Part shown: positions 7,122-61,359 of the stretch, in pieces
Layout: each line of letters begins with the position of its first letter
Numbering within the stretch: the first letter of the stretch is position 1
IMG/VR virus record: IMGVR_UViG_3300017912_002502
Span: 3,776 to 67,775 of that record
DNA length: 64,000 bases
Reading direction: 5' to 3' (one strand)
From: a virus
Lineage: Duplodnaviria > Caudoviricetes
Notes under the pieces: model-generated
Databases searched by the model: none
The model's input: only the letters and a program-made list of their open reading frames with translations
What the model was told of the DNA's origin: nothing
Translations under genes and position numbers: made by a program

Positions 7122-7778
7122 ATGAATATTTCTAAACCAACCCTTGAAGTCTTAAAAAACTTCGCAACTATTAACACGAACATCCTTGTTCGTGAAGGTA
7201 ATACTCTTGCCACTATTTCTAATGGTAAGAACATATTCTCTCGAGCCACAGTGACCGAATCCTTTGATAAGGAATTCGCGATTTATGACCTCAACTCATT
7301 GTTGGGTTTGCTCACATTTACTGAGAATCCTGATCTGGATCTTGGCGACGAGAGTCTTAAAATCAACAGCGGTGGTGCAGAGTTCGAGTATTTCTATGCC
7401 GATCCTAGCATCATCGTTGCTGCTCCCGACAAGACTATTGAAGTCGATAACTTTTATGAGTTTGAGATGAGCAAAGATGAAGTTACGAATATTACTCGTG
7501 CTGCATCTGTGATCAGTGCACCTGTACTGAGTGTTGTCGGTAAAGATGGTAAGGTTACATTATCTGTTGGCGATCCGTCAACTCCTAGAAGTAATACTTT
7601 CCGTCAGGTGATTGGTGAGACTGACAAAGAATTTGATTGCAGACTCGCTGTCGAGAACTTCAAAGTGATTGCAGATACTTACAAAGTGGTATTGTCACAG
7701 AAGAAGTTTATGTTCCTCGAGAACAAATCAGGTTCAATGAAATACTGGTTGGCTCTCGAACCTAACTCAGTAATCTAG
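7122..7778 (+). CDS. gp45: Sliding clamp gp45
   Basis: TLEVLKNFATINTNI, FAIYDLNSLLG and YWLALE motifs; position next to gp44. Confidence 0.93.
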   Translation: MNISKPTLEVLKNFATINTNILVREGNTLATISNGKNIFSRATVTESFDKEFAIYDLNSLLGLLTFTENPDLDLGDESLKINSGGAEFEYFYADPSIIVAAPDKTIEVDNFYEFEMSKDEVTNITRAASVISAPVLSVVGKDGKVTLSVGDPSTPRSNTFRQVIGETDKEFDCRLAVENFKVIADTYKVVLSQKKFMFLENKSGSMKYWLALEPNSVI

Positions 7779-13882: not shown

Positions 13883-13911
13883 TTGACATTTTTGTCTAAA
13901 TGAGGCATAAT
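13883..13911 (+). promoter_or_regulatory. sigma70-like promoter of gp43
   Basis: TTGACA-17-CATAAT with TGAGG upstream of the -10; ATG follows 6 nt later. Confidence 0.7.
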
Positions 13912-13917
13912 GGACTC

Positions 13918-16434
13918 ATGTCTGAATTCTATACATATTGCTGGCAGTATGGCAAAAACGTACTGACCAGAGGGTATCGCGATGGTAAACCCTTTACTGA
14001 ACGAGACCCAAAATTCAAACCGAAACTGTATGTCCGCTCAAACGAAGAATCAGATATCAAAGGTTTGTATGGTGAGCAGTTAAAAGAAATCGAGTTTGGC
14101 GACGCTGCCGACTGTCGAGAGTTTCTAGAAAAGTATAAAGGGATTGAGAATTATCCCATATACGGTCAAACAGATCTCACCTATCAGTATCTCTCTGAAA
14201 AATATCCAGACGATATTCCTTTTGATATGTCTGTGATGAACATACAATCTCTTGATATTGAAACCACTATTGAAAATGGTTTCCCAGATCCAGATAATCC
14301 CACTGAAAAGATTACACTGATCACAGTTGTAAATAATAACACCAAAGAAATATTGACATGGGGTGAAGGTGACTGGACTCCTGAGAGTCCTGAGATTGAT
14401 GGCTTAAATGTCACATATACTTCTTGTCAAGATGAAAAAGAACTATTGTCCAAGTTTGGTGACTGGTGGGTAAAAAATACTCCTGATATTGTCACTGGTT
14501 GGAACATCGAGTTTTTCGATATTCCCTATCTGATGAATCGTTTTGCAAGAGTATTTGGTAAGAACGATGAATTCAAAGAAAACAAAGTAAGAAACTCATT
14601 CAGCCCATTCGATATGACTCGTAAGAAAGTTGTAACGATGATGGGTAAAGCACATACTCTATATGAAATCAAGGGTGTGGCTCAACTCGATTATCTCGAC
14701 CTCTACAAAAAATTTACATACACAGTTAGAGAATCTTACAAACTAGATTACATTGCTGAGGTTGAACTTGGTTACAAAAAACTAGAAAACAATCACGAAA
14801 CATTCAAAGAGTTTTATGAAAAAGACTGGAACAGATTTGTAGATTATAATATCATCGATAGTAAATTGGTTGATGACCTTGAAGACAAGATGAAACTTAT
14901 CGAGTTGATTGCCACTATGGCATACGATGCAAAGTGTAATCTAACTGACATATATTCTTCAGTTCGTACTTGGGATTGTCTTTTGTATAATCACCTGCTA
15001 AAGAAAAACATTATGATACCACAGAAGCGTGAGAACGAAGGTCGTATTATTGAAGGTGCATATGTTCAGCAACCAGAGATTGGTGATTACAATTGGGTGT
15101 TGAGTTTCGATGCGACTTCTCTGTATCCTTCAATTATTATGCAGTACAATATGTCTCCTGAGACTTTGATGGCTGAACAACCGATTGATACATCAGTTGA
15201 TCAGTTGTTGGACAGGAAAACAAAAATTGATACTGACCTTGCCGTCGCTGCAAATGGTGTAAAATTTTCTCGTGACAAACAGGGTGTGTTCCCAGAGATT
15301 ACACAAAAGTTTTTTGATGACCGACAAAAATACAAAAAGCTGATGAAAGAAGCTGAACGCGAGTATGAAAAGACAAAAGATCCTAAACTCAAAGCAAAGA
15401 TTGCAAAGTATAATAACTTCCAGATGGCTAGAAAAATTCAGCTAAACAGTCTTTATGGTGCACTCGCTAATCAGTATTTCAGATATTATGATGACAGGAT
15501 TGGTGAAGGTATTACATTGACTGGTCAGTTTATTATCAGAGAAGCAGCGAAAGCACTGGATGAATATCTAAACAAAGTTTGTAATACTGAAGGTGAGGTA
15601 TATTCTTTCTATTCAGATACAGATTCTTGTTATATAACTCTTGACAATTTGGTCAAAAAGTATTATAATGACCAGAGTAAAGAGAAGATTGTAAATCTTC
15701 TCGATAAAATTGGTGAAGAAAAAATCGAACCTGCAATCGCAAAAGCGATGAGTGGTTTGGCAAAGTATACAAATGCCTTTGATGAAAAGATTTTCTTCAA
15801 GCGTGAAGCGATTGCGGATCGAGGTATTTGGGTTGCCAAGAAGCGATATGCTCTCAACGTCTGGGACAACGAGGGTGTTCGTTATGAAGAACCAAAACTA
15901 AAAGTTATGGGTCTTGAGATTGTAAGGTCATCGACTCCTGCTCCAGTTAGAGATAGTTTGAAAGAAGCAGTAAGAATTTGTTTATTGGAAGATGAAAAAG
16001 CGTTGCAAGATTTTGTCAATAAAACCAAAGAAGATTTTTGTCGTAGACCAGTACAAGAGATTGCTTTTCCTAGAGGTTGTAACAATCTTGAAAAGTATGC
16101 TTCTTCTTCTGACATTTATCAGAAGGGTACACCAATTCAGGTAAGAGGTGCATTGTTGTATAATAATGAATTGAAGAAACACAGACTCGGTATGAAATAT
16201 CCTAAGATACAAGAGGGTGATAAAATCAAGTTTGTGTACCTTAAAGAACCTAATACACTTGGTGAGAATACGATTGCATTCTCTACTAAGATTCCGCGTG
16301 AATTCGATCTCGATCGATTTATTGATTATGAATTGATGTTTGAGAAAGCATTTATTGAACCGCTAAATACTGTGGCAGATACTATTGGTTGGAAATCAAA
16401 ACCAGTTGCATCGCTAGAAGATTTATTTGCATAA
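13918..16434 (+). CDS. gp43: Family B DNA polymerase gp43
   Basis: ExoI DIETT, SFDATSLYPS, K..LNSLYG and YSDTDS; start moved to 13918 because the track start lies inside the promoter. Confidence 0.97.
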   Translation: MSEFYTYCWQYGKNVLTRGYRDGKPFTERDPKFKPKLYVRSNEESDIKGLYGEQLKEIEFGDAADCREFLEKYKGIENYPIYGQTDLTYQYLSEKYPDDIPFDMSVMNIQSLDIETTIENGFPDPDNPTEKITLITVVNNNTKEILTWGEGDWTPESPEIDGLNVTYTSCQDEKELLSKFGDWWVKNTPDIVTGWNIEFFDIPYLMNRFARVFGKNDEFKENKVRNSFSPFDMTRKKVVTMMGKAHTLYEIKGVAQLDYLDLYKKFTYTVRESYKLDYIAEVELGYKKLENNHETFKEFYEKDWNRFVDYNIIDSKLVDDLEDKMKLIELIATMAYDAKCNLTDIYSSVRTWDCLLYNHLLKKNIMIPQKRENEGRIIEGAYVQQPEIGDYNWVLSFDATSLYPSIIMQYNMSPETLMAEQPIDTSVDQLLDRKTKIDTDLAVAANGVKFSRDKQGVFPEITQKFFDDRQKYKKLMKEAEREYEKTKDPKLKAKIAKYNNFQMARKIQLNSLYGALANQYFRYYDDRIGEGITLTGQFIIREAAKALDEYLNKVCNTEGEVYSFYSDTDSCYITLDNLVKKYYNDQSKEKIVNLLDKIGEEKIEPAIAKAMSGLAKYTNAFDEKIFFKREAIADRGIWVAKKRYALNVWDNEGVRYEEPKLKVMGLEIVRSSTPAPVRDSLKEAVRICLLEDEKALQDFVNKTKEDFCRRPVQEIAFPRGCNNLEKYASSSDIYQKGTPIQVRGALLYNNELKKHRLGMKYPKIQEGDKIKFVYLKEPNTLGENTIAFSTKIPREFDLDRFIDYELMFEKAFIEPLNTVADTIGWKSKPVASLEDLFA

Positions 16435-26405: not shown

Positions 26406-26582
26406 ATGGATCGGATTACTCGTAGATTATTCAATAGATTAAATAGATTACATAAAAGACAGACTCCTCTAACCTCTGAAGAACGTCAAAATCTTATAAA
26501 TAGTGAAGGATTATACAAATTAATTACCAACCATAATAAAAGAGTGGATGGTATTGTAAATGAACTTATTGCGAGGAAATAG
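26406..26582 (+). CDS. 58-aa basic hypothetical protein (not in ORF track)
   Basis: MDRITRRLFNRLNRLHK...LIARK; its stop overlaps the next GTG. Confidence 0.45.
   Translation: MDRITRRLFNRLNRLHKRQTPLTSEERQNLINSEGLYKLITNHNKRVDGIVNELIARK
26495..26502 (+). promoter_or_regulatory. T4 late promoter
   Basis: TATAAATA about 80 nt upstream of the 859-aa gene. Confidence 0.6.
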
Positions 26583-30508: not shown

Positions 30509-32110
30509 ATGAAATATCATGGAATAATCCTTGGAATCTTCCAAGCATCACATATCCTAATTAGAGACCCTTGTTGGGTAAGTGTTAAGCGTTCAGCTGG
30601 TGCGTATAAAATTGCACACTTTATGCGTGGCGAAGGTTGGGATGTTGAGGTAGTCGATTACTGGCTACAATTCGATTATGAAGAATTCAAAGAACTTATA
30701 GACTCTCGTGTTACTAAAGATACCAAATTTATTGGGTTAAGTCTTACCTTCCCAATTACTGGTAGAAATATCATTCGATCAAAAAAATATCTCCAATACA
30801 TCAAAGATACTTATCCTGACGTAGCTATTGTTTGCGGTAGTAAAGCCATATACACTGGAATATATCTTCATGAGTATGTAGATTATTTTCTGTTTGGTTA
30901 TGGAGAATACGGTTTTAATGAACTGATGAAAAAACTCACAGGTCGTCCATCATCCGTTGTCATTGAAGAATTTAAAGTTGGACCACAATATGGAGTAGCT
31001 GAAGGTGTTATAAAATATATTGATTGTGATAAAAACCATATCTGTGCACCACAAAAAGATCTTTCTGTAGAATATGAAGATAGAGATTTCATATTACCCA
31101 ATGAACATATGACTTTTGAATTTGCTCGTGGTTGTAAATTTAAGTGTAAATTCTGCTCATATAATATGATAGGTGTGAAAGGCGATTACACCAGAGATAT
31201 GAATAATTTTTATACTGAAGCTATGAGAAACTACGATAAGTGGGGGTTGACTAATTATTCAGTAGCTGATGAAACTTTCAATGACAGTATTCCTAAACTT
31301 GAAAGTATTCTTGAACAAACAAGAAAGATGCCATTTAAGTTAGATATGGCTGGATATGTTCGTGCTGATTTGATTGCCTCTCGTCCACAAGACAGAGAAT
31401 TAATGGCTGAGATAGGTTTCTGGGGACATTATTATGGTATTGAAACTTTAAATCACGAGTCTGGAAAAACTATTGGTAAAGGTATCAACCCAGACAAATT
31501 AAAAACTGAACTTAAAGCAATTAAAAAGTATTTTGAAACTCATAATCAAGGAAGGTATCGAGCAACAGCTAGTTGGATTGTAGGATTACCATTTGAAACG
31601 CCTGAAACATATTGGGATGGTATTAGTTGGTGGGCTAGAGAAATGCCACTACAACATATGGCTGCATTTCCATTGTTTATTAATGCTGGAAATGAAGATG
31701 AAAGAAGAGTATTTAAAGGTGCAGAGTCTGAGTTTGATAGAACTTGGAGACAGTCTAATTTATTTGGAACTTATGAAGATGACGAAGAAGTTGGTGTGGA
31801 TCCAAAACAGTTACCTGATTTTGTTAGAGAATATGTAATGATGCGTTATAACCAATCTGCTGGAGCAAGATGGACACACGAACACTTCAATCATTGGACT
31901 GCACACGTTGAATGGGGTAAAACTATGATGTCTGATCAGTTTTTGAACTCTGGTATTGGTGCTTGGTGGTTCCATCACTATCATACCACTGGAATGGGCA
32001 CATATGAGGAGTTATTAAAACTAAGAGAACGTGATATTCACATCCCTGAGGTTATGAGGCGTACAGAAGAACACATTGAAAATTATAAGTGGAAGAAGCT
32101 GAGTTTATAA
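30509..32110 (+). CDS. Radical SAM enzyme with an N-terminal B12-binding-like domain
   Basis: CKFKCKFC cluster motif, VADETFN, GIETLN and SWIVGLPFET; N-terminal Rossmann-like region. Confidence 0.82.
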   Translation: MKYHGIILGIFQASHILIRDPCWVSVKRSAGAYKIAHFMRGEGWDVEVVDYWLQFDYEEFKELIDSRVTKDTKFIGLSLTFPITGRNIIRSKKYLQYIKDTYPDVAIVCGSKAIYTGIYLHEYVDYFLFGYGEYGFNELMKKLTGRPSSVVIEEFKVGPQYGVAEGVIKYIDCDKNHICAPQKDLSVEYEDRDFILPNEHMTFEFARGCKFKCKFCSYNMIGVKGDYTRDMNNFYTEAMRNYDKWGLTNYSVADETFNDSIPKLESILEQTRKMPFKLDMAGYVRADLIASRPQDRELMAEIGFWGHYYGIETLNHESGKTIGKGINPDKLKTELKAIKKYFETHNQGRYRATASWIVGLPFETPETYWDGISWWAREMPLQHMAAFPLFINAGNEDERRVFKGAESEFDRTWRQSNLFGTYEDDEEVGVDPKQLPDFVREYVMMRYNQSAGARWTHEHFNHWTAHVEWGKTMMSDQFLNSGIGAWWFHHYHTTGMGTYEELLKLRERDIHIPEVMRRTEEHIENYKWKKLSL

Positions 32111-37333: not shown

Positions 37334-38350
37334 ATGTCTTTATATGTGGATGTAAAATATCTGAACATGGCATCTTCTCGCTTCGAGATATTCAAGCGAA
37401 AAGGTGAATATCTGTTCAATGTCCGTTGCCCTATCTGTGGCGACTCTCAAAAGAACAAACGCAAGATGCGTGGTTATTTCTTCAAACGAAATAACGATCT
37501 CCTCTATAAATGTCATAACTGCCAATGGTCTGGATCTTTCGGTAAACTACTGAAGGAAGTAGACCAGATTCTTTATAAACAATATGTCCTAGAAAGATTT
37601 GCTGACGGCGAGACTGGTAAGGGTAAAGGACACTCTAAACCAGAGGTTGTGATGGATTTCAAACCTAAGTTTGAAAAGAAACCTATCATTGAACAACTGA
37701 TGGATAAACTATCAGATCTCCCAGCTGATCACGAGGCAGTCGAGTATGCACTCGGTCGTGGACTCCCACCTAAATCTCTTGAAAGACTATTCTACGTTGA
37801 TAATGTTCAAAACGTAGCAGGTCTGAATAAGAAATATAAAGAATCAATCAAAACTGATGAGCCAAGATTAGCCATCCCATTTATAGACGAGAAGGGTAAG
37901 TTGACAGCAGTCAGCCTTCGAGGGATGCGAGATGAGGCTCTAAGGTACATCCTCGTTAAGGTAGACGAGGATGCTCCAACTGTCTACGGTCTGGATACAG
38001 TCGATAAGAACAAGCCAGTTATCGTTGTTGAAGCACCACTTGACAGTTTATTCATCCCCAACTCCATCGCTTGTGCTGGCACTTCTTTCAACAAGATCGA
38101 TGAGTTGGGGTTGGACAAGGACAAAACGACAATCGTCTTCGATAATCAACCACGAAATAAAGAAGTTTGTAAAATGCTTGAAAAGTATATTGACTTGGGA
38201 TATAATGTCGTGGTTTATCCCGACAATATAACTGGTAAAGATATAAACGATATAGAAAATGAAGGGATTGATTCGTATAAATTAATAAGGGAGAACACTT
38301 TTAGTGGGCTCACTGCTAAAGCTAAATTTTCGTTATGGAGAAAAACATGA
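37334..38350 (+). CDS. gp61: DNA primase gp61
   Basis: Zn finger CPICGD...CHNC and TOPRIM VVEAPLDS, VFDNQP. Confidence 0.95.
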   Translation: MSLYVDVKYLNMASSRFEIFKRKGEYLFNVRCPICGDSQKNKRKMRGYFFKRNNDLLYKCHNCQWSGSFGKLLKEVDQILYKQYVLERFADGETGKGKGHSKPEVVMDFKPKFEKKPIIEQLMDKLSDLPADHEAVEYALGRGLPPKSLERLFYVDNVQNVAGLNKKYKESIKTDEPRLAIPFIDEKGKLTAVSLRGMRDEALRYILVKVDEDAPTVYGLDTVDKNKPVIVVEAPLDSLFIPNSIACAGTSFNKIDELGLDKDKTTIVFDNQPRNKEVCKMLEKYIDLGYNVVVYPDNITGKDINDIENEGIDSYKLIRENTFSGLTAKAKFSLWRKT

Positions 38351-38997
38351 GTGAAGTGTCTTTGGTTGCACTGAGTAAACCATCAGCTATAACAGATTGT
38401 AACACTGCTGCTGAATTGGTTGCATATACTGCTAGGGTGAGTAATCCTACAAACCAAAATAATACCGCGACAGCCCCAAAATTATTGGGATATCTGATAC
38501 GCGAAGACCACTGGTCTCCATTTGAGATGGTACATATGACAATGGAGATTAAGACTACTAGGGATATTGCCAGACAGATATTACGTCACAGGTCATTTTC
38601 CTTCCAAGAGTTTAGTCAGCGATATGCTGAAGCAACTGAATGGGAAACAAGAGAAGCGAGATTACAAGATCTCAAAAATCGTCAAAACTCAATGGAAACT
38701 GACGACCCAGAAATAAATGAAATGTGGAATGTTGTTCAAAAGAAACTAATCAAAAATGCCGAAGATGCCTACAAGTGGGCATTAGAACAAGGTATCGCAA
38801 AAGAACAAGCACGTGCTGTTTTACCAGAGGGTAATACCATGTCTACATTATACATGGCTGGTTCATTACGCTCTTGGATACACTATTGTCAATTGCGCAC
38901 TGGTAACGGTACGCAGAAAGAACATATCAAAGTTGCAGAAAAATGCTGGGAGATTATTGAGCAACATTTTCCCGATGTTGTAAAGGCTCTTAAATGA
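38347..38997 (+). CDS. thyX: Flavin-dependent thymidylate synthase
   Basis: HWSPFE, QILRHRSFSFQEFSQRY signature and TQKEH. Confidence 0.96.
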   Translation: MSEVSLVALSKPSAITDCNTAAELVAYTARVSNPTNQNNTATAPKLLGYLIREDHWSPFEMVHMTMEIKTTRDIARQILRHRSFSFQEFSQRYAEATEWETREARLQDLKNRQNSMETDDPEINEMWNVVQKKLIKNAEDAYKWALEQGIAKEQARAVLPEGNTMSTLYMAGSLRSWIHYCQLRTGNGTQKEHIKVAEKCWEIIEQHFPDVVKALK

Positions 38998-50776: not shown

Positions 50777-51166
50777 ATGATATGTGTTGATGAAATTAAA
50801 TCTGAAGACGTTGAATATGAGATCGTAGAGTATTTAAATGGCTCTACTTCATATCAAGGTGAGATAACTACTGAATACCATAAGTTGAGAGAGTTATTCG
50901 GTAAACCGTCTTATGACACTGGGGATCCAGATGAAAAAGTCCAGACTTGCTGGTATATCGAAGGTAAAGTTTTCTTTGAAGATGAAGAGGGCGAGATCGA
51001 TAATGAATATGTAAGGGCATCAGTCTATAACTGGAAATCTGGTGGTAGAACACCAGTCGGAGAGTATGACTGGCATATCGGTGGTGACAATTATGACTCG
51101 GTTGAACTTGTCCAAGCCATAGTAAACGGCGAAATTAAGCCATATTTTAATTTAGATAACGCTTGA
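50777..51166 (+). CDS. Acidic hypothetical early protein
   Basis: GAGAGG SD; VYNWK...WHIGG motif. Confidence 0.6.
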   Translation: MICVDEIKSEDVEYEIVEYLNGSTSYQGEITTEYHKLRELFGKPSYDTGDPDEKVQTCWYIEGKVFFEDEEGEIDNEYVRASVYNWKSGGRTPVGEYDWHIGGDNYDSVELVQAIVNGEIKPYFNLDNA

Positions 51167-51191
51167 CATTGATCACAAAATGTTGTATAAT
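51163..51191 (+). promoter_or_regulatory. Consensus sigma70 promoter
   Basis: TTGACA-17-TATAAT. Confidence 0.85.
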
Positions 51192-53390: not shown

Positions 53391-54701
53391 ATGTCTGACG
53401 TAATTTGTCCATATATCCTGAATCACGTTTATACAGGAACGCGAAACGAACGTAGACTTTGCTGTTCATCTACACCCAGAGTTTCACAAGATAAAAAGCG
53501 TACAGATGAAGAGTGGTGGAACTCGGAGGAAATGAAAAGCATCAGACGTAAGATGATGCGAGGTGAAAAACTCGAGATGTGTAATGTGTGTTACTATCGA
53601 GAGGATAATGGTCTGGAGTCATTACGCCAAGAGGCATTACAAGAGTTTGATATTGAGGAACTAAAATCTAATCTAAATGAAGATGGCTCGATGTCGATCC
53701 AACCAGAATATTTTGAACATAAATCTGTGCATTGTAATCTACAATGCCAAACTTGCACACCTGTCCTATCCTCTACATGGGCGACACTCGAGAAAAAGAT
53801 GTTTGGGTTCAAGTGGGCGAACAATATGGATGCACCATACGAACAAGCACAAGCAGATTCTATTATCAAAGCTATACTCGAGAAAAGATGTAAGAAAATA
53901 AACTGGGCTGGTGGTGAACCAATGATGATGCCAGTACACTGGAAGGTTACAGATAAACTCGTTGAACTATTAGACGATCCAGAGTATTCAGCCTATGTCA
54001 AAACAATCAAGATCCAATACAACACAAACCTAACTCGTAGTATCTGGAAAAACAAATCAATACCTGAAATGCTCCAGCCATTCAATATTGAACTAAGAAC
54101 TTCAATGGATGGTGTCGGCGATACATTTGAATTCAATCGCGATGGAGCGAAGTGGGATGAATGCTGGAAAACTTGGAATCAATATTACGATCTAGGGTTT
54201 GATATAGAAGTGAACTCAGTCTATACATCGACAGTTATTATGCAGATGGAAGAATACCAACGACTCTATGTCGACAAAGACGTAAGATTCTACGACCACA
54301 TTTACGTTTGCTATCCTGATCAGTATCCTGGAGGAGGACAGGGATTTATGGACGTAAGATTATTCCCACAACACATATTCGATCGTATAGTTACGAATGC
54401 AGAGAACGTGCTGAAAAAATATATGAACGAAGGTTACGAGCGAGGATTAGATATCCTTAGAATATATCGTGACGAAAAACAGAAGTATGAAAACCTTTTT
54501 GAAAACGAGGACACATTACGAAAGATGAAAGGGTATGCTGAATATAGGGATAACTTTTGCGAGAACGTAAAGTACCAAGATTTGATATGGACTTTAGATG
54601 AAGAGGCAGCTGAATGGTTCGACAAAATAGAATCATTACCATATGACCCAAATGAAAATAAACAGTCAGGCTGGAGAGCCGAAGACTGGGAGGACAGATA
54701 A
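53391..54701 (+). CDS. Radical SAM enzyme with an N-terminal Cys-rich (Twitch-like) region
   Basis: HCNLQCQTC, AGGEPM and YNTN; N-terminal CPY..CC..CNVC. Confidence 0.85.
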   Translation: MSDVICPYILNHVYTGTRNERRLCCSSTPRVSQDKKRTDEEWWNSEEMKSIRRKMMRGEKLEMCNVCYYREDNGLESLRQEALQEFDIEELKSNLNEDGSMSIQPEYFEHKSVHCNLQCQTCTPVLSSTWATLEKKMFGFKWANNMDAPYEQAQADSIIKAILEKRCKKINWAGGEPMMMPVHWKVTDKLVELLDDPEYSAYVKTIKIQYNTNLTRSIWKNKSIPEMLQPFNIELRTSMDGVGDTFEFNRDGAKWDECWKTWNQYYDLGFDIEVNSVYTSTVIMQMEEYQRLYVDKDVRFYDHIYVCYPDQYPGGGQGFMDVRLFPQHIFDRIVTNAENVLKKYMNEGYERGLDILRIYRDEKQKYENLFENEDTLRKMKGYAEYRDNFCENVKYQDLIWTLDEEAAEWFDKIESLPYDPNENKQSGWRAEDWEDR

Positions 54702-54703
54702 AA

Positions 54704-55531
54704 GTGAAAGACCATTGGTTATATGCTCGAGGTTTTTATGAGAAACCAAAAGAGTATTCATTTTACAGCACCGATACAGAAGATAAGTATCAAAAAAACC
54801 TGAAAGAAAATTTTGAAGAATTAAAATTAAACGGTTGGATTCATCATGACGTAGAAGAAGATGATCGTGTACTCGGTTACAAATACGACTATAACCCATA
54901 TAATCCTCAAATAAATGACTGGGTAAATCTTTCATACAAAATAAATGAGCATGGTTTTAGAGGTGAAGAAATGCCCAAAGAGAAAAAACCAAGAAGCATA
55001 ATGACTCTTGGATGTTCGAATACATTTGGAGTCGGTATGCCTGTCGGTCAAATTTGGTCAACACTTGTCGGTAATACATTACGTCAACGAGCATATAATC
55101 TTGGTGTTCCAAGTGGTTCTTTAGATACATGCTTTAGAGTTTTACTTGCTTGGCTTCCTAAAATTAGACCTTCTCATGTATTTTTATTGGAGCCTCCAGG
55201 AGTCAGATATGAAACTCATATTCTATCAGGGATTATACCATCTTCAGTTGAAAGCCCAGAACCAGTAGCTTTTAGATTTGAGCATGAAGATGAGTGGGTT
55301 CTTCATAGAGAGAAAACGATGAGAGGAATTAAATCATTGTGTGATCAATTCGATACGCCTTTCTATCATTTAAGTTATGATGCACACTTAACTAAAGAAA
55401 TTGCTGAGTTCTTTTCATTCATTGACTCAGCCAGAGATCTGATGCATCCAGGAAGAAATGCTCACACATATATTGCTATGAATATGTTAAAACTAGCTGG
55501 ATATAAATGGGATGTTGAAATAAATGGATAA
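54704..55531 (+). CDS. SGNH/GDSL-like protein, paralog 3
   Basis: YKINEHGFRG, LGCSNTFG, YNLG and ARDLMHPG. Confidence 0.65.
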   Translation: MKDHWLYARGFYEKPKEYSFYSTDTEDKYQKNLKENFEELKLNGWIHHDVEEDDRVLGYKYDYNPYNPQINDWVNLSYKINEHGFRGEEMPKEKKPRSIMTLGCSNTFGVGMPVGQIWSTLVGNTLRQRAYNLGVPSGSLDTCFRVLLAWLPKIRPSHVFLLEPPGVRYETHILSGIIPSSVESPEPVAFRFEHEDEWVLHREKTMRGIKSLCDQFDTPFYHLSYDAHLTKEIAEFFSFIDSARDLMHPGRNAHTYIAMNMLKLAGYKWDVEING

Positions 55532-55949
55532 ATGGGATTACGCACATATGGAGGTGGCTCGGATTTATTCTCAGCTATCATCCGCAAAACGATTACAAGT
55601 CGGCGCAGTCATAGTAAAAGATAAAAGAGTATTGTCTATCGGTTATAATGGTATGCCGACAAAATGGACTAACGAATGTGAATTCACAGATGAACATGGC
55701 TTGAACACTTATACAAAACCTGAAGTGTTACATGCCGAGACAAACGCGATTGCAAAAGTTGCGAAGTCAAGCGAGAGTTGCGATGGCGCAACAATATATA
55801 CAACAACCGCACCATGCCTTGATTGTGCTAAGTTAATTTATCAATCTGGTATAAAACGTGTCGTCTGGAATACACCACATTTACGAAGCGATGATGGTGT
55901 TCAATTCCTAATGAAATGTGAAGGTGTATCAGTGGAGCATTTAGAATGA
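55524..55949 (+). CDS. cd: dCMP deaminase
   Basis: GYNG, LHAETNAI and PCLDC. Confidence 0.93.
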   Translation: MDKWDYAHMEVARIYSQLSSAKRLQVGAVIVKDKRVLSIGYNGMPTKWTNECEFTDEHGLNTYTKPEVLHAETNAIAKVAKSSESCDGATIYTTTAPCLDCAKLIYQSGIKRVVWNTPHLRSDDGVQFLMKCEGVSVEHLE

Positions 55950-56749
55950 AAATAACTATTTTTGGTTATGGATTTGTAGGTCGAGCACATGAGATGGCTC
56001 TGTCGGTTCATGGGTTGCATGAGATTACAATCGTAGATCCGAAGTTCGAAGCATGGGATATTGGTAATCCTGAAGCGATTATTATCGCAGTGTCAACACC
56101 ACAAGGTAAATATGGTGCATGTGATATGACTAATGTATATGCTGCATTGGATGAATGTCCTCCAAATATTCCTATTCTGATCAAGTCAACTATATCTCTC
56201 GAGGGATGGGATCATATCTGTGAGCACTATCCTGAACACGAGGTTACATTCAGTCCTGAGTTTCTACGAGCAGACCATGCACTCGAGGATTTTAACAATA
56301 GAGAAAAAATGTTCTTTGGTGGTGGTGATGATTTATTCTGGGCAACTCTATTTTGGAAACAGGGTTGTGAAATGGTCAGACGCGATCCAGAAGAACTTAT
56401 CGTGATGAAATATACAATCAATAGTTTTCTGGCGACAAAGGTCGCCTTTCTCAATCAAATCTATGATATGTGTCAGAGTGCTGGTATAAATTATGATACA
56501 GTAAAAGATTTGATTGCAACCGACGAGCGTATCGGTCAGTCACATTTGGAAGTGACTCAAGAAAGGGGTTTCGGTGGACATTGCTTCCCGAAAGATACCA
56601 ATGCGCTCGTCCACTCTGGAGTAAAACAAGGAGTAGATCTTTCTATTTTAAAGTCTGCCATAGACTATAACGATGGTCTAAAGAATGTAAAACATATCAG
56701 TTACGCTTTAGAGGGTATAATGAAACGGTTTGAAAGAGATAAGAATTAA
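55946..56749 (+). CDS. UDP-glucose/GDP-mannose 6-dehydrogenase-like protein lacking the C-terminal domain
   Basis: GYGFVG, KSTI, SPEFL, KYTINSFLA and GFGGHCFPKD; only 267 aa. Confidence 0.85.
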   Translation: MKITIFGYGFVGRAHEMALSVHGLHEITIVDPKFEAWDIGNPEAIIIAVSTPQGKYGACDMTNVYAALDECPPNIPILIKSTISLEGWDHICEHYPEHEVTFSPEFLRADHALEDFNNREKMFFGGGDDLFWATLFWKQGCEMVRRDPEELIVMKYTINSFLATKVAFLNQIYDMCQSAGINYDTVKDLIATDERIGQSHLEVTQERGFGGHCFPKDTNALVHSGVKQGVDLSILKSAIDYNDGLKNVKHISYALEGIMKRFERDKN

Positions 56750-56752
56750 TGC

Positions 56753-56781
56753 TTGACATCTATAAAGGAGTAAAGTATAAT
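56753..56781 (+). promoter_or_regulatory. Consensus sigma70 promoter upstream of the modification operon
   Basis: TTGACA-17-TATAAT; the -10 overlaps the ATG of the 60-aa ORF. Confidence 0.8.
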
Positions 56782-56962
56782 GTTAACAAATTGGTGGCGT
56801 GTATGGGCGCAAAGTCTGGGCGAGAAGGTCGGCGATTCTGACCGTGAAGCAGACACTATTGCAATTATCCGTACCGTTTGGTGGCTCACACATATGGCGA
56901 CTTGCATCTTTATTATTCTAAATGCAATTGCTAATCATGGGTGGGGTTTGATTGGACTTTAA
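56780..56962 (+). CDS. Small conserved membrane protein
   Basis: AAGGAG SD; WRVWAQSLGEK...AIIRT; C-terminal TM. Confidence 0.6.
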   Translation: MLTNWWRVWAQSLGEKVGDSDREADTIAIIRTVWWLTHMATCIFIILNAIANHGWGLIGL

Positions 56963-56976
56963 TATGGGACTAAATT

Positions 56977-58281
56977 ATGGTAAAAGAACTTACAATTGAA
57001 AAAGTCGACTGTGAAGACAAACTAGGTAAATGGCTCGATGAGTCAACCTATGATCAAGTCATCACTGAAGACACTGACTTATATGCTCTCGATAAATTCG
57101 AGGCAAATGGTGAACACAATGTCATCTTCAAGTTTCGTAAAGGTGTATTCTCATCTCAGGAACAGCAAGATGCATATGATGGATTGGCTCCAGCTGCAAT
57201 TGAAACTCAGAATCGTGGGTTGGCTGCTGGACCACGTGCAGGGCAAAATGGCAAACGTGACTGGGTTACACCTCTACAAGAGGATATTCTAGACGCTATC
57301 TTTACCGCACCAGACTCGTCACTTGATGACGAGTTTGACGCGATTGAAAATGCTATTGCTAGACATAAACCAGATGAAGCTGGTCGTGGTCGTGTATGGT
57401 TACGCGACAACATCAAGAAAACAGGAGTTGAATACTCTGAATTCTTCGACTGGTGGCTCGACTCTGTTCGTCCACTATCTCCTGCAGAACGTAAAGTCGA
57501 AGCAAAGAGTATGGTCAAAAACTATATTTCAGATACATCATACGCGAATACAGTGAACTCTGGTATCGCTGGATGGTTCGATAGATATCCTCGGATTCCA
57601 TATGGTCGTGCTACAGCATACACTGAAAAGAATCCTGAACTATTCGCGAAGTCGTATCCATATCTGCAGACTCTGGCTCGTAAGTTTGAAGAGTTACTGC
57701 CTGAAAGATATGCAAGACAAAAAGCATTCACTGATCAGATCGATCCAGCGTTTGTTGTTCCTGAAACTCCTTACACAACACTAACAGTCAACAGGACATT
57801 CAGAACTGCTGCACATAGAGATGCTGGTGATTACACTGAAGGTTTCTCTAATATCAGTTGCATCTCTCCAGATGGTAAAAAAGGTTGGGATGGTTGTCTG
57901 TTTGTTCTACCTGAATATCGTATCGCAGTTGAGTTGCATCCAGGAGATCTCCTGCTTGTAAACAATCACGATGGTATTCACGGCAATACTGAAATCATTG
58001 GTGACGATCCTATCCGTATTTCGATCGTCGCATATGCTCGTGAGAAAATGGCTCTGCTTGGGTCATATGATTACGAGAATCTCAGACGTCAGTTCGTTGA
58101 TGACAGACGTTTGAATGAAGAACATCCCGAGTGGCGACCACTCTGGAATGGCGTATCTACTAAAATGTGGGATTCACAAGAGTGGTACGACTATCTCAGA
58201 GAGCGAGGTGGAGAAGAAATGCTGAACAAGTATCATCCGTCAGCATCCACAGGATCCGCATCACTCGAGGATTTGTTCTAA
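56977..58281 (+). CDS. Tet/JBP-family 2OG-Fe(II) DNA base dioxygenase
   Basis: TLTVN...TAAHRD (HxD), GDLLL...HGNT (distal H) and RISIVAYAREKM (2OG-binding RxS). Confidence 0.85.
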   Translation: MVKELTIEKVDCEDKLGKWLDESTYDQVITEDTDLYALDKFEANGEHNVIFKFRKGVFSSQEQQDAYDGLAPAAIETQNRGLAAGPRAGQNGKRDWVTPLQEDILDAIFTAPDSSLDDEFDAIENAIARHKPDEAGRGRVWLRDNIKKTGVEYSEFFDWWLDSVRPLSPAERKVEAKSMVKNYISDTSYANTVNSGIAGWFDRYPRIPYGRATAYTEKNPELFAKSYPYLQTLARKFEELLPERYARQKAFTDQIDPAFVVPETPYTTLTVNRTFRTAAHRDAGDYTEGFSNISCISPDGKKGWDGCLFVLPEYRIAVELHPGDLLLVNNHDGIHGNTEIIGDDPIRISIVAYAREKMALLGSYDYENLRRQFVDDRRLNEEHPEWRPLWNGVSTKMWDSQEWYDYLRERGGEEMLNKYHPSASTGSASLEDLF

Positions 58282-58928
58282 TGTGCGCAGTTATTGGCGC
58301 ATCTCTAGTCTCTCCCAGCAATCAAGACCTAGATCTGGTGAGAGATGTTTTTCTCGAATCTCGTATTCGAGGTTTGCATGCGACTGGTGTGTCGTATGTT
58401 AAACAAGGTAAGGTTGCCACTCTCATTAAACCTGTCCCTGCTCCTGACTTCTTCTCTCTCGTTGAAATGGAGCAATTTGTTAATGAGGATGGCAACCTTT
58501 ACCTGATAGGTCACTGTCGTTATTCAACCAGTGACCTTCGATTTAACCAACCCATACAAACTAATCCAGACTTGGCGATCGTACACAATGGTGTAGTGAC
58601 ACAGGAGTTACCACATAACTGGGAATATTTGTATGGTTATCAAACTGAGACAGCCAATGATAGTGAACTGATCAATAGAACACTAGAAGCTGGACTGAAT
58701 CCTCAAGATATCTGGGCAGACTCGTCATTATCTGTAATCGAGTTACGCTCTGATAAATCTATGAAAGCATATCGCAACGGAAAGCGACCACTATACAGAA
58801 CGCAGATGCACAACGGTACTATTTTCACATCAACGAAAGATATTGCCATCCGTGCTGGTCTGCCTGATAATCAAGAACTTATGGAAAATGGAGGAATAAA
58901 TGCTGACTTACAGCCCAGCTACTCGTGA
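58281..58928 (+). CDS. Stand-alone class II (Ntn) glutamine amidotransferase domain
   Basis: True start is the TAATG-coupled MCAVIG (Cys2 nucleophile); RGLHATG, GHCRYST, HNGV and NDSE. Confidence 0.85.
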   Translation: MCAVIGASLVSPSNQDLDLVRDVFLESRIRGLHATGVSYVKQGKVATLIKPVPAPDFFSLVEMEQFVNEDGNLYLIGHCRYSTSDLRFNQPIQTNPDLAIVHNGVVTQELPHNWEYLYGYQTETANDSELINRTLEAGLNPQDIWADSSLSVIELRSDKSMKAYRNGKRPLYRTQMHNGTIFTSTKDIAIRAGLPDNQELMENGGINADLQPSYS

Positions 58929-59553
58929 TGAGGTAGAACATTTATTACTCGTCTCGGAAGAAGGTAAGAACACTCGCTTCCTAAAATCATCACACAATCT
59001 GTGGTATCGTTTTAAAAACTATACAAAAGCACCACCACTCGCTGCACGTGAGGGTAATGATATTGTCGCTCTGATATTTGCCACATTCAATAAAGATGGT
59101 TACACGAATCTATATGAGATCGTTACAATGGAAGGTCATGAGGGTAAAGGATATGGCTCGAAGGTATGGGAATATTTCTTAGACTACGCAGTGAACCAGA
59201 AACAGAGTAAACGATTAAAGATATCTTGTACGCCATCATCAGTTACTTGGCATATGCGTAATGGTCTGGTGTTCTGGGCAGTCGATCCATCTGGTAGTTT
59301 ACGATCTGATCAGCCACTGTTTGCTACTCGAGGTGAGCAGTTGGAGTTTCGTGCGAAGGCGATTGTAACTCCGAGTATCGCCAAACCTACTAATCCTCGA
59401 GTGATAGAACAATTAAAGAAAGAAGCACCAGAGTCTCATGGCTTTGGTAAAAAGAAAATGAGTGCCACAGAGGAAGCAATTGCTGCTGTCGGCGAGTGTT
59501 GGTTACGCGATGCATTATATGAGGATGCATCTCTGGAGAGTCTGTTTGACTGA
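58900..59553 (+). CDS. GNAT acetyltransferase
   Basis: LYEIVT...EGKGYGS acetyl-CoA-binding motif A. Confidence 0.78.
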   Translation: MLTYSPATRDEVEHLLLVSEEGKNTRFLKSSHNLWYRFKNYTKAPPLAAREGNDIVALIFATFNKDGYTNLYEIVTMEGHEGKGYGSKVWEYFLDYAVNQKQSKRLKISCTPSSVTWHMRNGLVFWAVDPSGSLRSDQPLFATRGEQLEFRAKAIVTPSIAKPTNPRVIEQLKKEAPESHGFGKKKMSATEEAIAAVGECWLRDALYEDASLESLFD

Positions 59554-60565
59554 TTATAGAAAAAAAGAAAATCGTAGAGAAGCATTCAAGCGATGGTATG
59601 CTTGGTCATTGAAGCATGGTGATTGCGATCCAGCGATATGGCTCGGTAATTATCTGAACAAAAGATACGAACACAATGACGAACAGCGACTTTGGTTTGC
59701 TTGGTTATATGGTAACACATACTATCTCCCGACATCGTGGGTATTGATGAATGAGTTTCCTGATTATGAACTGGCTACATTCGATCGTATGGACGCATGG
59801 AACACAGAGAACTATAAGCGACTACGATATCAGACAGACACCAAGTGGAGCAAAGGACATCTAGCTGATATGTTTAAATCATACGAGGTATTTGTTACTC
59901 CTGCTCGTACACAACGCCAAGCTATCGAATCTTATTATGGTGATACAGAGGAACAGAACTTTGATAATCTCTGGACAGCATTCAAGGAAAAGCTGTATAA
60001 GTTTGGACGCTATTCCGTCTGGTTTTATATGCAACAATTGAAACACACAGCAGACGTAGCAATCGAACCAACCAGTCTGATGTTTAATGATTACTCTGGC
60101 TCTCGATCTCATCGTAATGGATGGCTATATGCATTGGGACAAGAACACAACGTGGATACAAGATTGACTCCTGCCGAGTATGATAGACTCGAAGCAGAGG
60201 GTACTGAACTGATCAAAGAAATGAAAGCTGAATATCCTGAACTATCCAAAGACATTAATTATTTCTCGATGGAAACCTGTCTGTGTTCATTCAAGAAGTT
60301 ATTTCGTAAGAATCATGGCAGATATCTGGGTTACTATCTGGACAGACAAGCTGAAGAGATATTGAAAGTCGAGCAAGATGGTTGGTCTGGTATCGAGTGG
60401 GAAGTTTTGTGGCAAGCAAGACGTGAATGTTTGGACTTGACTTTAGCTGGTAAAACAGGAATAATCAAAGAAAAATATGCATCGTTTATGAATACAGGCA
60501 GACTCGATAGACTTGAGATGATGTATCGTGACGAGAAAAAAGTGGAAGGAGTGTTACCATTATGA
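59546..60565 (+). CDS. alpha-glutamyl/putrescinyl-thymine pyrophosphorylase clade 2 (amino-group:DNA transferase)
   Basis: GDCDP, EQRLWFAWLYGNTY, KFGRYS, SRSHRNG and METCLCSFKK; TTG start with GGAG SD inferred. Confidence 0.78.
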   Translation: MTDYRKKENRREAFKRWYAWSLKHGDCDPAIWLGNYLNKRYEHNDEQRLWFAWLYGNTYYLPTSWVLMNEFPDYELATFDRMDAWNTENYKRLRYQTDTKWSKGHLADMFKSYEVFVTPARTQRQAIESYYGDTEEQNFDNLWTAFKEKLYKFGRYSVWFYMQQLKHTADVAIEPTSLMFNDYSGSRSHRNGWLYALGQEHNVDTRLTPAEYDRLEAEGTELIKEMKAEYPELSKDINYFSMETCLCSFKKLFRKNHGRYLGYYLDRQAEEILKVEQDGWSGIEWEVLWQARRECLDLTLAGKTGIIKEKYASFMNTGRLDRLEMMYRDEKKVEGVLPL

Positions 60566-61131
60566 GTACAGTAATTGCAATTGTCGGTGTTCCTGGAACT
60601 GGGAAGACGACATTAATGAAAGAGTTTCTTGAAATCCCCAGAGCATACGATGAATATTGGGAACTATCTAAACCAGTCGATCTGGTTGAAGGTCAGATAA
60701 ATGGCGATGTATTTGTTATGGGTAAGTATGAGGAAGGTGAAGTTTTTTCTGGTACTGATAGACTCTCAATGGCGGTTCAGCCAAAAGCAATTGAATATCT
60801 GCAGGGTGATCCAGCCAAGTTTGTATTATTCGAGGGAGATAGATTGACGACTGTATCATTCTTTCAAGCAGTCAAACAAGCTGGTCATACACTTCATATT
60901 ATTGAACTAACTATTCCAGATGAACTTCGAGAGCAGAGATATATAGATCGTGGTTCTGATCAGAGTGAGCAATTCATTCAATCAAGGTTCACAAAACTCA
61001 AAAACATACGCAGTGAATTCGGAAGTAATCTATTCGATGATGGTAACATTACATCATTCGAGCATAAGGATGTAGAGGACACTCATAAAGTATTAGACTT
61101 TATAATAGGAATTATCAATGAGCAAAGGTAG
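60562..61131 (+). CDS. P-loop kinase of the 5-hydroxymethyluracil DNA kinase type
   Basis: GVPGTGKT, GKY, GTDRLSM, EGDRL and R..RGSDQ; directly follows aGPT-PPlase2. Confidence 0.78.
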   Translation: MSTVIAIVGVPGTGKTTLMKEFLEIPRAYDEYWELSKPVDLVEGQINGDVFVMGKYEEGEVFSGTDRLSMAVQPKAIEYLQGDPAKFVLFEGDRLTTVSFFQAVKQAGHTLHIIELTIPDELREQRYIDRGSDQSEQFIQSRFTKLKNIRSEFGSNLFDDGNITSFEHKDVEDTHKVLDFIIGIINEQR

Positions 61132-61315
61132 CAGAAGAAGATTGCAACAAATAGCTGACGAACAGATGAGAGAAAACTGGGATAAGATATTCAGTCGTAA
61201 GAAAGATTTCGTAGAAAAGCAACAAGATCTAACCGAATTGAACGCTGATGGCAATCGTGACAGAGGTAGATACGGCGAAGATCTTAGTCAAAAAAGTTCT
61301 AAAAAAAGATCCTAA
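61118..61315 (+). CDS. Hypothetical protein
   Basis: MSKGSRRR...NWDKIF motif. Confidence 0.55.
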   Translation: MSKGSRRRLQQIADEQMRENWDKIFSRKKDFVEKQQDLTELNADGNRDRGRYGEDLSQKSSKKRS

Positions 61316-61331
61316 AATACAAAAATAATTG

Positions 61332-61359
61332 TTGACATTTATCTCTAATTAGGTATAAT
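61332..61359 (+). promoter_or_regulatory. sigma70-like early promoter
   Basis: TTGACA-16-TATAAT with an upstream A-tract. Confidence 0.75.

Follow-up and report, generated by a model that had tools for sequence, protein, structure and literature searches.

Results

A five-gene cassette headed by a TET/JBP dioxygenase

The stretch of DNA analysed here (the window, 64,000 nucleotides) comprises bases 3776–67775 of the linear 67.8-kb IMG/VR record IMGVR_UViG_3300017912_002502, which CheckV estimates to be about 42% complete. At 56977–61131 of the window, five overlapping open reading frames (ORFs) on the + strand form a cassette predicted to hypermodify thymine in DNA. A preliminary description of the window, made from its letters, had placed five overlapping genes here; the ORFs were found exactly at the positions claimed, and the five family assignments hold; each protein exceeds the Pfam curated cut-off for its own family (Tet_JBP, GATase_6, Acetyltransf_1, ADDT and Ploopntkinase3). 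The analysis covers families, folds, conserved catalytic residues, linkage and the absence of other sources of the modified base, and from these we infer all substrates and products. The genes of the cassette are as follows:

56977..58281, + strand: TET/JBP (5mYOX) Fe(II)/2-oxoglutarate (2OG) dioxygenase, 434 aa, ending ...SASLEDLF (PF12851)
58281..58928, + strand: class II (Ntn) glutamine amidotransferase (GATase), stand-alone domain, 215 aa (GATase_6, E 8e-8)
58900..59553, + strand: GNAT acyltransferase, 217 aa, ending ...ASLESLFD (Acetyltransf_1)
59510..60565, + strand: amino acid:DNA transferase (AADT; Pfam ADDT, formerly aGPT-Pplase2) (PF18724)
60562..61131, + strand: P-loop nucleotide kinase, clade 3, 189 aa, presumed 5-hydroxymethyluracil (5-hmU) DNA kinase (PF18751)

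The TET and GATase genes overlap by 1 nt in the junction TAATG, GATase and GNAT by 29 nt, and AADT and kinase by 4 nt in the junction ATGA. The overlap between GNAT and AADT is 8–44 nt, depending on the AADT start, which is 59510 or possibly a TTG at 59546.

The record carries a T4-like replication module (family B polymerase, DnaB-like helicase, ribonucleotide reductase and ThyX) together with a gp45-like clamp and a clamp loader. Its polymerase is about 49% identical to marine cyanomyophage polymerases, and its G+C content is 36–43%. The source is a marine phage of T4-like type, not in culture. Searching 50,697 phage records with the operon by megablast gave zero matches, and relatives were found at the protein level only.

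Thymine as the likely substrate

Two genes in the window bear on the supply of thymine:

38335..38997, + strand: ThyX, FAD-dependent thymidylate synthase (PF02511, E 1.4e-42; TIGR02170, 159.9 bits against an equivalog cut-off of 87.9)
55524..55949, + strand: dCMP deaminase (PF00383, E 1.8e-23; phrog_174, 1e-49)

Both had been named in the preliminary description, and both identifications stand. Some 1 kb separates the dCMP deaminase gene from the TET gene downstream of it; in this context the deaminase feeds dUMP to ThyX, and the phage makes dTMP.

The same description had noted that no hydroxymethylase or C5-methyltransferase is visible in the window. This is correct as stated, and the search of the rest of the available 67.8-kb record likewise found neither a ThyA-family protein (PF00303), the family in which a dUMP hydroxymethylase was sought, nor a C5-methyltransferase (PF00145). 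However, absence from a record that is only 42% complete is weak evidence alone, and the search was therefore extended to relatives. Neither family was found in any of 49 related IMG/VR records (about 1.5 Mb in all), among them G004, a 138.7-kb record that is 86% complete and whose TET is 83% identical to that of the window. PF00145 was also absent from all four complete genomes of cultured relatives (DLP6, C48C1, S-CBWM1 and Cr30), and PF00303 from the complete genomes of DLP6, C48C1 and S-CBWM1. The single PF00303 protein found, in Cr30, passes the equivalog cut-off of canonical thymidylate synthase. The lack of both families in the record and its relatives, combined with the presence of ThyX and dCMP deaminase, points to thymine as the substrate; it is the only 5-methylpyrimidine that these phages are seen to make.

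The dioxygenase

The TET protein matches Tet_JBP (PF12851) at 65.4 bits (cut-off 34.9, E 4.7e-18). The iron triad (H280-x-D282 and H335) and the 2OG-binding arginine (R347) are invariant across 30 homologues. An AlphaFold2 (AF2) model of the protein (pLDDT 82) has human TET2, CcTet and NgTET1 as its best Foldseek matches in the PDB (E ~1e-9, probability 1.00). The family is large: the homologues number at least 2501, measure about 430 aa and in many cases lie on 130–168-kb contigs. Those in DLP6 (L001), Cr30 (L002) and S-CBWM1 (L016) carry the label 'SNF2 DNA repair protein', apparently in error.

ParB is the proposed partner of other phage T-dioxygenases, and the N-terminal half of the window TET was considered as a fused ParB or other domain. 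This was ruled out, as the AF2 model aligns with TET2 over its whole length; short phage TETs (~280 aa) also align across it, and there was no ParB_N signal. As a separate gene, the ParB_N profile gave no match in the record at E ≤ 10 and none above the cut-off in 50 records, these being sequence-profile searches, whereas published ParBs have also been recognised by structure. More distant cassettes encode, just upstream of AADT, a 437–486-aa protein without a Pfam family (L066 7877–9190; L047 5397–6857), in which whole-record searches gave a sub-threshold ParB_N-like stretch of 12–17.5 bits; it could be a ParB-type activator in those phages.

The transferase, the stand-alone glutaminase and the acyltransferase

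AADT scores 61.4 bits against PF18724 (cut-off 26.2, E 1.4e-16). Its AF2 model (pLDDT 91) was compared with PUGT, gp46 of phage PaMx11, the only solved AADT structure, and aligned with PDB entry 8Z2N (VIA) over 255 of 288 residues with Z 17.3 and a root-mean-square deviation of 3.8 Å; the next unrelated fold scored only Z 8.6. The top three Foldseek matches were all PUGT (the two-helix-bundle fold of 8Z2M/8Z2N). This relationship is reached by fold alone: sequence searches of the PDB with TET, AADT, kinase and GATase, and with a profile of 15 AADT sequences, gave nothing meaningful. In PUGT, Glu243, Thr244 and Cys247 hold the metal and the flipped thymine (its O4 through Ca2+), and glycine is bound by Trp146, Lys150 and Asp24. 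The window AADT has E255-T256-x-x-C259 at the same spacing as Glu243-Thr244-x-x-Cys247, with E255 and C259 invariant and T256 nearly invariant among its homologues; the equivalence is by spacing and motif, not by residue superposition. Homologues of the AADT also occur in cluster B mycobacteriophages, next to kinase homologues that bear the name 'terminase small subunit' or 'adenylate kinase'; in at least one of these records the same place also has a gene annotated 'queuine tRNA-ribosyltransferase'.

The GATase (GATase_6, 32.8 bits against a cut-off of 27) begins MC... and carries the motifs CRYSTS, HNG and NDSE. The roles of the N-terminal cysteine and of the R, N-G and D motifs of the glutamine site are established from PurF and GlmS. 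Unlike PurF, GlmS and AsnB, in which the glutaminase domain is fused to a synthase (acceptor) domain, the window protein is the glutaminase domain alone. Its best NCBIfam match is purF, at 1.4e-7 and 31 bits against a cut-off of 350. The nearest relatives in cultured phages are proteins of Pseudomonas phages tf, NV1 and PaP3/LUZ24-like phages (H92–H111), with 26–30% identity; these phages are Bruynoghevirus-type podophages, and the annotation given to the proteins there is GlmS-like.

GNAT matches Acetyltransf_1 at 32.2 bits (E 1.5e-7). A GNAT of the window type was present in 19 related loci. When it was searched by tblastn against the phage records there were zero matches, and no sequence link to the PaMx11 acetyltransferase gp48 was found.

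The kinase

Of the five assignments that of the kinase is the weakest, and its presumed role on 5-hmU is by analogy. The protein matches PF18751 (Ploopntkinase3) at 56.5 bits (E 3.3e-15); its other matches are to generic AAA models only, and it has no match to the Pfam HMUD family models of validated 5-hydroxymethyl-dU (5-hmdU) DNA kinases, among them M6 gp54 and ViI gp67/gp243. By comparison, a ViI-type kinase matches HMUD2 at 2e-168, and BLASTP aligns it with the window kinase over the P-loop only. Thus, where the preliminary description had called this gene a kinase of the 5-hmU DNA kinase type, the P-loop kinase part stands and membership of the HMUD families does not, PF18751 being a clade without a validated member. 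Indirect support for the presumed role comes from constant linkage (46 loci) and from a natural fusion that ties the kinase to the dioxygenase, P0032 (661 aa, from a metagenome), in which Ploopntkinase3 occupies residues 3–174 and Tet_JBP residues 444–581.

Conservation and exchange of the cassette genes

TET, GATase and AADT occur together in 44 of 82 non-redundant related loci, so the arrangement is not due to chance. All 44 loci with an AADT of the window type also carry the GATase, which ties this AADT subtype to the glutaminase. Five loci with 'GATase only' end at a contig edge within 1–3.7 kb, and three with 'AADT only' carry a different, ViI-like long AADT. The gene order (GATase, GNAT, AADT, kinase) is kept in near-identical contigs and in those whose TETs are 84–92% identical. 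Many related cassettes have an Amidoligase_2-like gene between GATase and GNAT, which the window cassette lacks, and the more distant ones insert both an amidoligase and the 437-aa protein described above.

At greater distance the genes behind TET change. In a 74% relative, on 134–158-kb contigs, a TET-associated glycosyltransferase takes the place of these genes, and the same holds for DLP6 and S-CBWM1. In C48C1 the gene behind TET is a UDP-galactopyranose mutase, while the 8 kb around the Cr30 TET include an AADT and a kinase-like gene. The TET gene is the fixed anchor, while the downstream genes are swapped between AADT/kinase sets and glycosyltransferases. A fixed TET with exchangeable decorators is the pattern expected of an oxidase that makes a chemical handle. 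In Cr30, a dATP/dGTP diphosphohydrolase-like gene (by Pfam) and an annotated inositol-1-phosphate synthase lie between the TET and kinase-like genes (L002 10172–10699 and 13269–14450), which hints at a different thymine adduct there, possibly one bearing inositol or a sugar.

Polymerase-type tails on the modification enzymes

The C termini of TET (...SASLEDLF) and GNAT (...ASLESLFD) resemble that of the phage DNA polymerase (...VASLEDLFA). The polymerase and the clamp are encoded at:

13900..16434, + strand: DNA polymerase, gp43-like family B, ending ...VASLEDLFA (DNA_pol_B match)
7122..7778, + strand: sliding clamp, gp45-like (phrog_223, E 1.8e-63); homologues of 218 aa carry PF02916/PF09116

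When the tail motif was searched for in the 436 ORFs of at least 40 aa in the record, it was found only at the ends of the polymerase, TET, GNAT and one 43-aa antisense ORF (55684–55815), the last of which is taken to be chance. The tail was then counted in the homologues from related loci:

TET: 84 of 91
DNA polymerase: 8 of 8
TET-associated glycosyltransferase: 9 of 11
AADT: 24 of 52
GNAT: 6 of 47
GATase: 0 of 53
Kinase: 0 of 46
Amidoligase: 0 of 25
Other glycosyltransferases: 0 of 39

The tails of polymerase and TET also co-vary: the two share the ending -DLF in the window and G004, and the ending -FF in L031, L049, L056, L086, L088, DLP6 and C48C1. In T4, the acidic-hydrophobic C termini of gp43, gp55 and gp33 are interchangeable epitopes that bind the sliding clamp gp45 (PMC2988020). 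The T4 sequences, ASLDFLFG at the end of gp43 and SLDFLY in gp55, are tails of the same acidic-hydrophobic kind as ASLEDLF(A) in the window. T4 also offers a precedent for a clamp-bound DNA-modifying enzyme, as its alpha-glucosyltransferase binds gp45 (PMC13216743); unlike the window enzymes, however, neither T4 glucosyltransferase has such a tail. The sharing by TET and GNAT of a gp43-like polymerase tail suggests that they are tethered to the clamp, docking on the gp45-like protein at 7122..7778. Among the papers searched there was no description of polymerase-like tails on modification enzymes of this sort.

We propose, as a real possibility that falls a little short of likely, that T4-like phages lacking ParB couple thymine hypermodification to the replisome through clamp tails, and that the glutaminase is the ammonia-donating subunit of a distinct AADT subtype. 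If so, the sliding clamp would play the part of DNA-retention factor or activator that ParB is proposed to play for other phage T-dioxygenases, and dependence on the clamp could account for the inactivity of ParB-less enzymes in E. coli. The glycosyltransferase and AADT of sister phages would dock on the gp45 clamp likewise, and the glutaminase would define a glutamine-fed route to aminomethyl-uracil.

A proposed route and its alternatives

The preliminary description had proposed a post-replicative model (oxidation of T in DNA to 5-hmU, followed by phosphorylation and amine transfer), and both the family assignments and the missing alternative sources support it. In this model dCMP deaminase and ThyX would supply ordinary dTTP, and T would be incorporated during replication. 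TET/JBP would then oxidise T in DNA to 5-hmU, the P-loop kinase would phosphorylate the hydroxymethyl group to give 5-phosphomethyl-U, and AADT would flip the base out and swap the phosphate for a nitrogen nucleophile. The stand-alone glutaminase would supply ammonia from glutamine, in the manner of PurF acting on PRPP, to yield 5-aminomethyl-dU. GNAT would act last, acylating the aminomethyl-dU, probably to 5-acetamidomethyl-dU. The purpose would be to protect the phage DNA from host nucleases. The general route from T through 5-hmU and phospho-5-hmU to a nitrogen adduct we consider probable; the specific product of ammonia and acetyl transfer is offered tentatively, as a rather doubtful refinement of it.

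Several points weigh against this route or its last steps. The kinase belongs to the unvalidated clade PF18751 and shares only its P-loop with an HMUD2 kinase of ViI type. Ammonia is not the nucleophile of the characterised AADTs, which use amino acids or putrescine. The amidoligase in many relatives means that the ancestral product may have been more complex than acetamidomethyl-U. Enzymes of the ParB-less part of clade C1 were inactive in earlier tests, and the window has no detected ParB, which may count against its TET if that enzyme belongs to C1. Finally, with some 58% of the genome missing, a hydroxymethylase or methyltransferase could still lie outside the record.

The alternatives to the proposed route differ in the step that they change. 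In an unlikely but serious alternative the entry is the same while AADT installs a free amino acid or amine, in the style of M6, ViI, PaMx11 and PhiW-14; the Ntn protein would then work on the side chain once it is attached (a glutaminyl or glutamyl adduct, for instance), either as hydrolase or as amidotransferase, and GNAT would cap it. All characterised AADTs transfer glycine, serine or putrescine, PUGT binds glycine, and the Amidoligase_2-like gene of many related cassettes fits an amide-linked side chain better than the mere addition of NH3. That gene, however, is not in the window cassette. Ammonia is favoured instead because the glutaminase is catalytically intact by motif, with the full glutaminase signature, yet has no acceptor domain; because it is always paired with this AADT subtype (44 of 44 loci), whereas the loci with a ViI-like AADT, a type known to transfer amino acids, lack it; and because its nearest named relative, PurF, works by letting ammonia from glutamine displace a phosphate ester.

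The other alternatives change the substrate of TET or the origin of 5-hmdU, and both seem very improbable. TET could act on 5-methylcytosine (5mC) made by a host methyltransferase or by a phage enzyme not seen here, with the kinase and transferase building a cytosine hypermodification; Burke et al. (2021, PMC8256090) proposed such a cytosine pathway for some contigs. Phage TETs of clades A and B do oxidise 5mC and on some contigs accompany P-loop kinases and aGPT-Pplases, the T-dioxygenases assayed in vitro are reported to oxidise 5mC too, and the genome is incomplete. Yet PF00145 was absent from the record, the 49 related records and the four complete relatives, a C5-methyltransferase co-occurs with only 6% of 5mYOX pathways (PMC13229309), and the residues with which PUGT binds thymine O4 via Ca2+ are retained in AADT. 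It is equally hard to credit that 5-hmdU enters before replication, as in phages of ViI, M6 and PhiW-14 type, with the hydroxymethylase gene lying in the 58% of the genome that the record lacks, leaving TET for further oxidation or for mopping up residual T. A record of about 42% completeness leaves room for such a gene, and a hydroxymethylase is found near many kinase/AADT contigs (PMC8989533). Against this, PF00303 was found in none of the 49 related records, including the close relative that is 86% complete, and in none of the three complete relatives without ThyA; the Cr30 match is canonical ThyA, and the phage invests in dTMP through ThyX and dCMP deaminase. The post-replicative route from T is thus the reading that we retain.

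Promoters and neighbouring genes

Consensus sigma-70 promoters and small ORFs lie at both edges of the cassette:

56753..56781, + strand: perfect sigma-70 consensus promoter (TTGACA-17-TATAAT), motif match, predicted to open the transcription unit
56780..56962, + strand: small ORF, 60 aa, between promoter and TET; gene status uncertain
61118..61315, + strand: 65-aa ORF that overlaps the end of the kinase gene; conserved in relatives, with 55% identity in L007 and 94% in L013
61332..61359, + strand: perfect sigma-70 consensus promoter, motif match, at the downstream edge of the unit

Perfect TTGACA-N16-18-TATAAT sites occur four times in the window (15641–15669, 51163–51191, 56753–56781 and 61332–61359), all on the + strand, where shuffling predicts 0.06. 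They are probably early promoters of the T4-like phage. The sites at 56753 and 61332 bracket the five genes, which suggests that the cassette is transcribed as a single early unit from a host-type promoter.

Directly upstream of TET in the window and in several relatives, though absent in others, is a gene for a truncated nucleotide-sugar (UDP-glucose) dehydrogenase-like protein (55946–56749, 267 aa), which covers model positions 73–298 of 413 and scores below the TIGR03026 cut-off. A twitch-domain radical SAM protein (NF033640, 281 bits) is encoded at 53391–54701, and its position varies among relatives. Both genes were considered as members of the cassette and rejected, as they are absent or moved in some relatives that bear it. 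A conserved 275-aa protein (54704–55531) adjoins dCMP deaminase in all close relatives, and in L003 a paralogue with 25% identity lies a few kb upstream of it; considered as a hidden ParB, it gave only weak DUF6473/SGNH-like Pfam hints. Elsewhere in the window are an 859-aa protein with an N-terminal AAA_33/zeta-toxin-like kinase domain (26582–29161) and a radical SAM protein of the B12-binding-domain type (30509–32110).

Comparison with known systems

The preliminary description had presented the cassette as a different entry into thymine hypermodification. The model itself is supported, but this entry has already been stated in print, and the description was right to suspect that similar neighbourhoods had been predicted. 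Lee et al. (2021, PMC8989533) predicted that TET_JBP replaces the hydroxymethylase and makes 5-hmU in situ for the kinase and transferase, and they remarked on unexplained amidoligase and glutamine amidotransferase genes. Their metavirome clusters of TET_JBP, 5-HMUDK and aGPT-Pplase2 (PMC8989533, Fig. 2, sequences 22–25) share with the window both the gene set and the logic, including the lack of a dUMP hydroxymethylase. They are, however, gene maps only, and the kinase clade, the polymerase-like tails and the strict pairing of GATase with AADT are not described there.

Oxidation of T by phage enzymes is itself established. Burke et al. (2021, PMC8256090) reported a single phage TET with activity on T, and O'Toole et al. 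(2026, PMC13229309) demonstrated T-dioxygenases of phages both in vivo and in vitro. The ParB-associated clade C1 is, in their words, 'consistently linked' with GATase, P-loop kinase and AADT genes; its members that lack ParB had been inactive on T and 5mC in earlier tests. Like the 5mYOX enzymes of clades C1 (ParB dependent) and C2 (ParB independent), the window TET is an Fe/2OG TET/JBP protein with no neighbouring C5-methyltransferase and with a C-terminal extension after the catalytic core. It differs from them in that no ParB was found, in its setting in a T4-like replication module and in its gp43-like tail. At 434 aa it is also longer than the C2 homologues of stated length (~290–300 aa).

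The closest parallel for the later steps is PaMx11, which makes 5-aminomethyl-dU (5-NmdU) and 5-acetamidomethyl-dU (5-AcNmdU) with the gp49 kinase, the gp46 PUGT, the gp47 FAD lyase and the gp48 acetyltransferase (PMC8989533, PMC11472151). The window likewise combines a kinase and an acetyltransferase with an AADT that shares the PUGT fold (Z 17.3), and the end product may coincide. In PaMx11, however, 5-hmdU comes from a hydroxymethylase and the amine is unmasked from glycine by the FAD enzyme, in place of which the window has a glutaminase; nor is PUGT reached from the window AADT by profile sequence search. For the first step the parallel is kinetoplastid base J, in which TET/JBP proteins (JBP1/2) oxidise T in DNA to 5-hmU before a glucosyltransferase decorates it; sister phages (the 74% relative, DLP6 and S-CBWM1) pair TET with a TET-associated glycosyltransferase. 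Unlike base J, the handle in the window is proposed to be phosphorylated and aminated, not glycosylated, and TET has no J-binding domain.

The cassette would thus be a further natural example of the published route, post-replicative thymine hypermodification starting from a phage T-dioxygenase. Its compact set of five genes should give a product that can be read by liquid chromatography–mass spectrometry (LC-MS). The strict GATase–AADT linkage predicts an intermediate, 5-aminomethyl-dU, that carries the amide nitrogen of glutamine, and the shared polymerase-type tail predicts clamp-dependent activity. Cultured relatives with the same TET clade (Stenotrophomonas phage DLP6, phage C48C1 and Caulobacter phage Cr30) make the idea testable, and in DLP6 and C48C1 the TET tail matches that of their own polymerase. 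Enzymes that write 5-hmU and amines onto plain DNA would also be of practical interest for sequencing and labelling chemistry. Set beside the known systems, the cassette is real and well conserved and of a kind already published; the glutaminase–AADT pairing and the clamp-type tails may be new leads.

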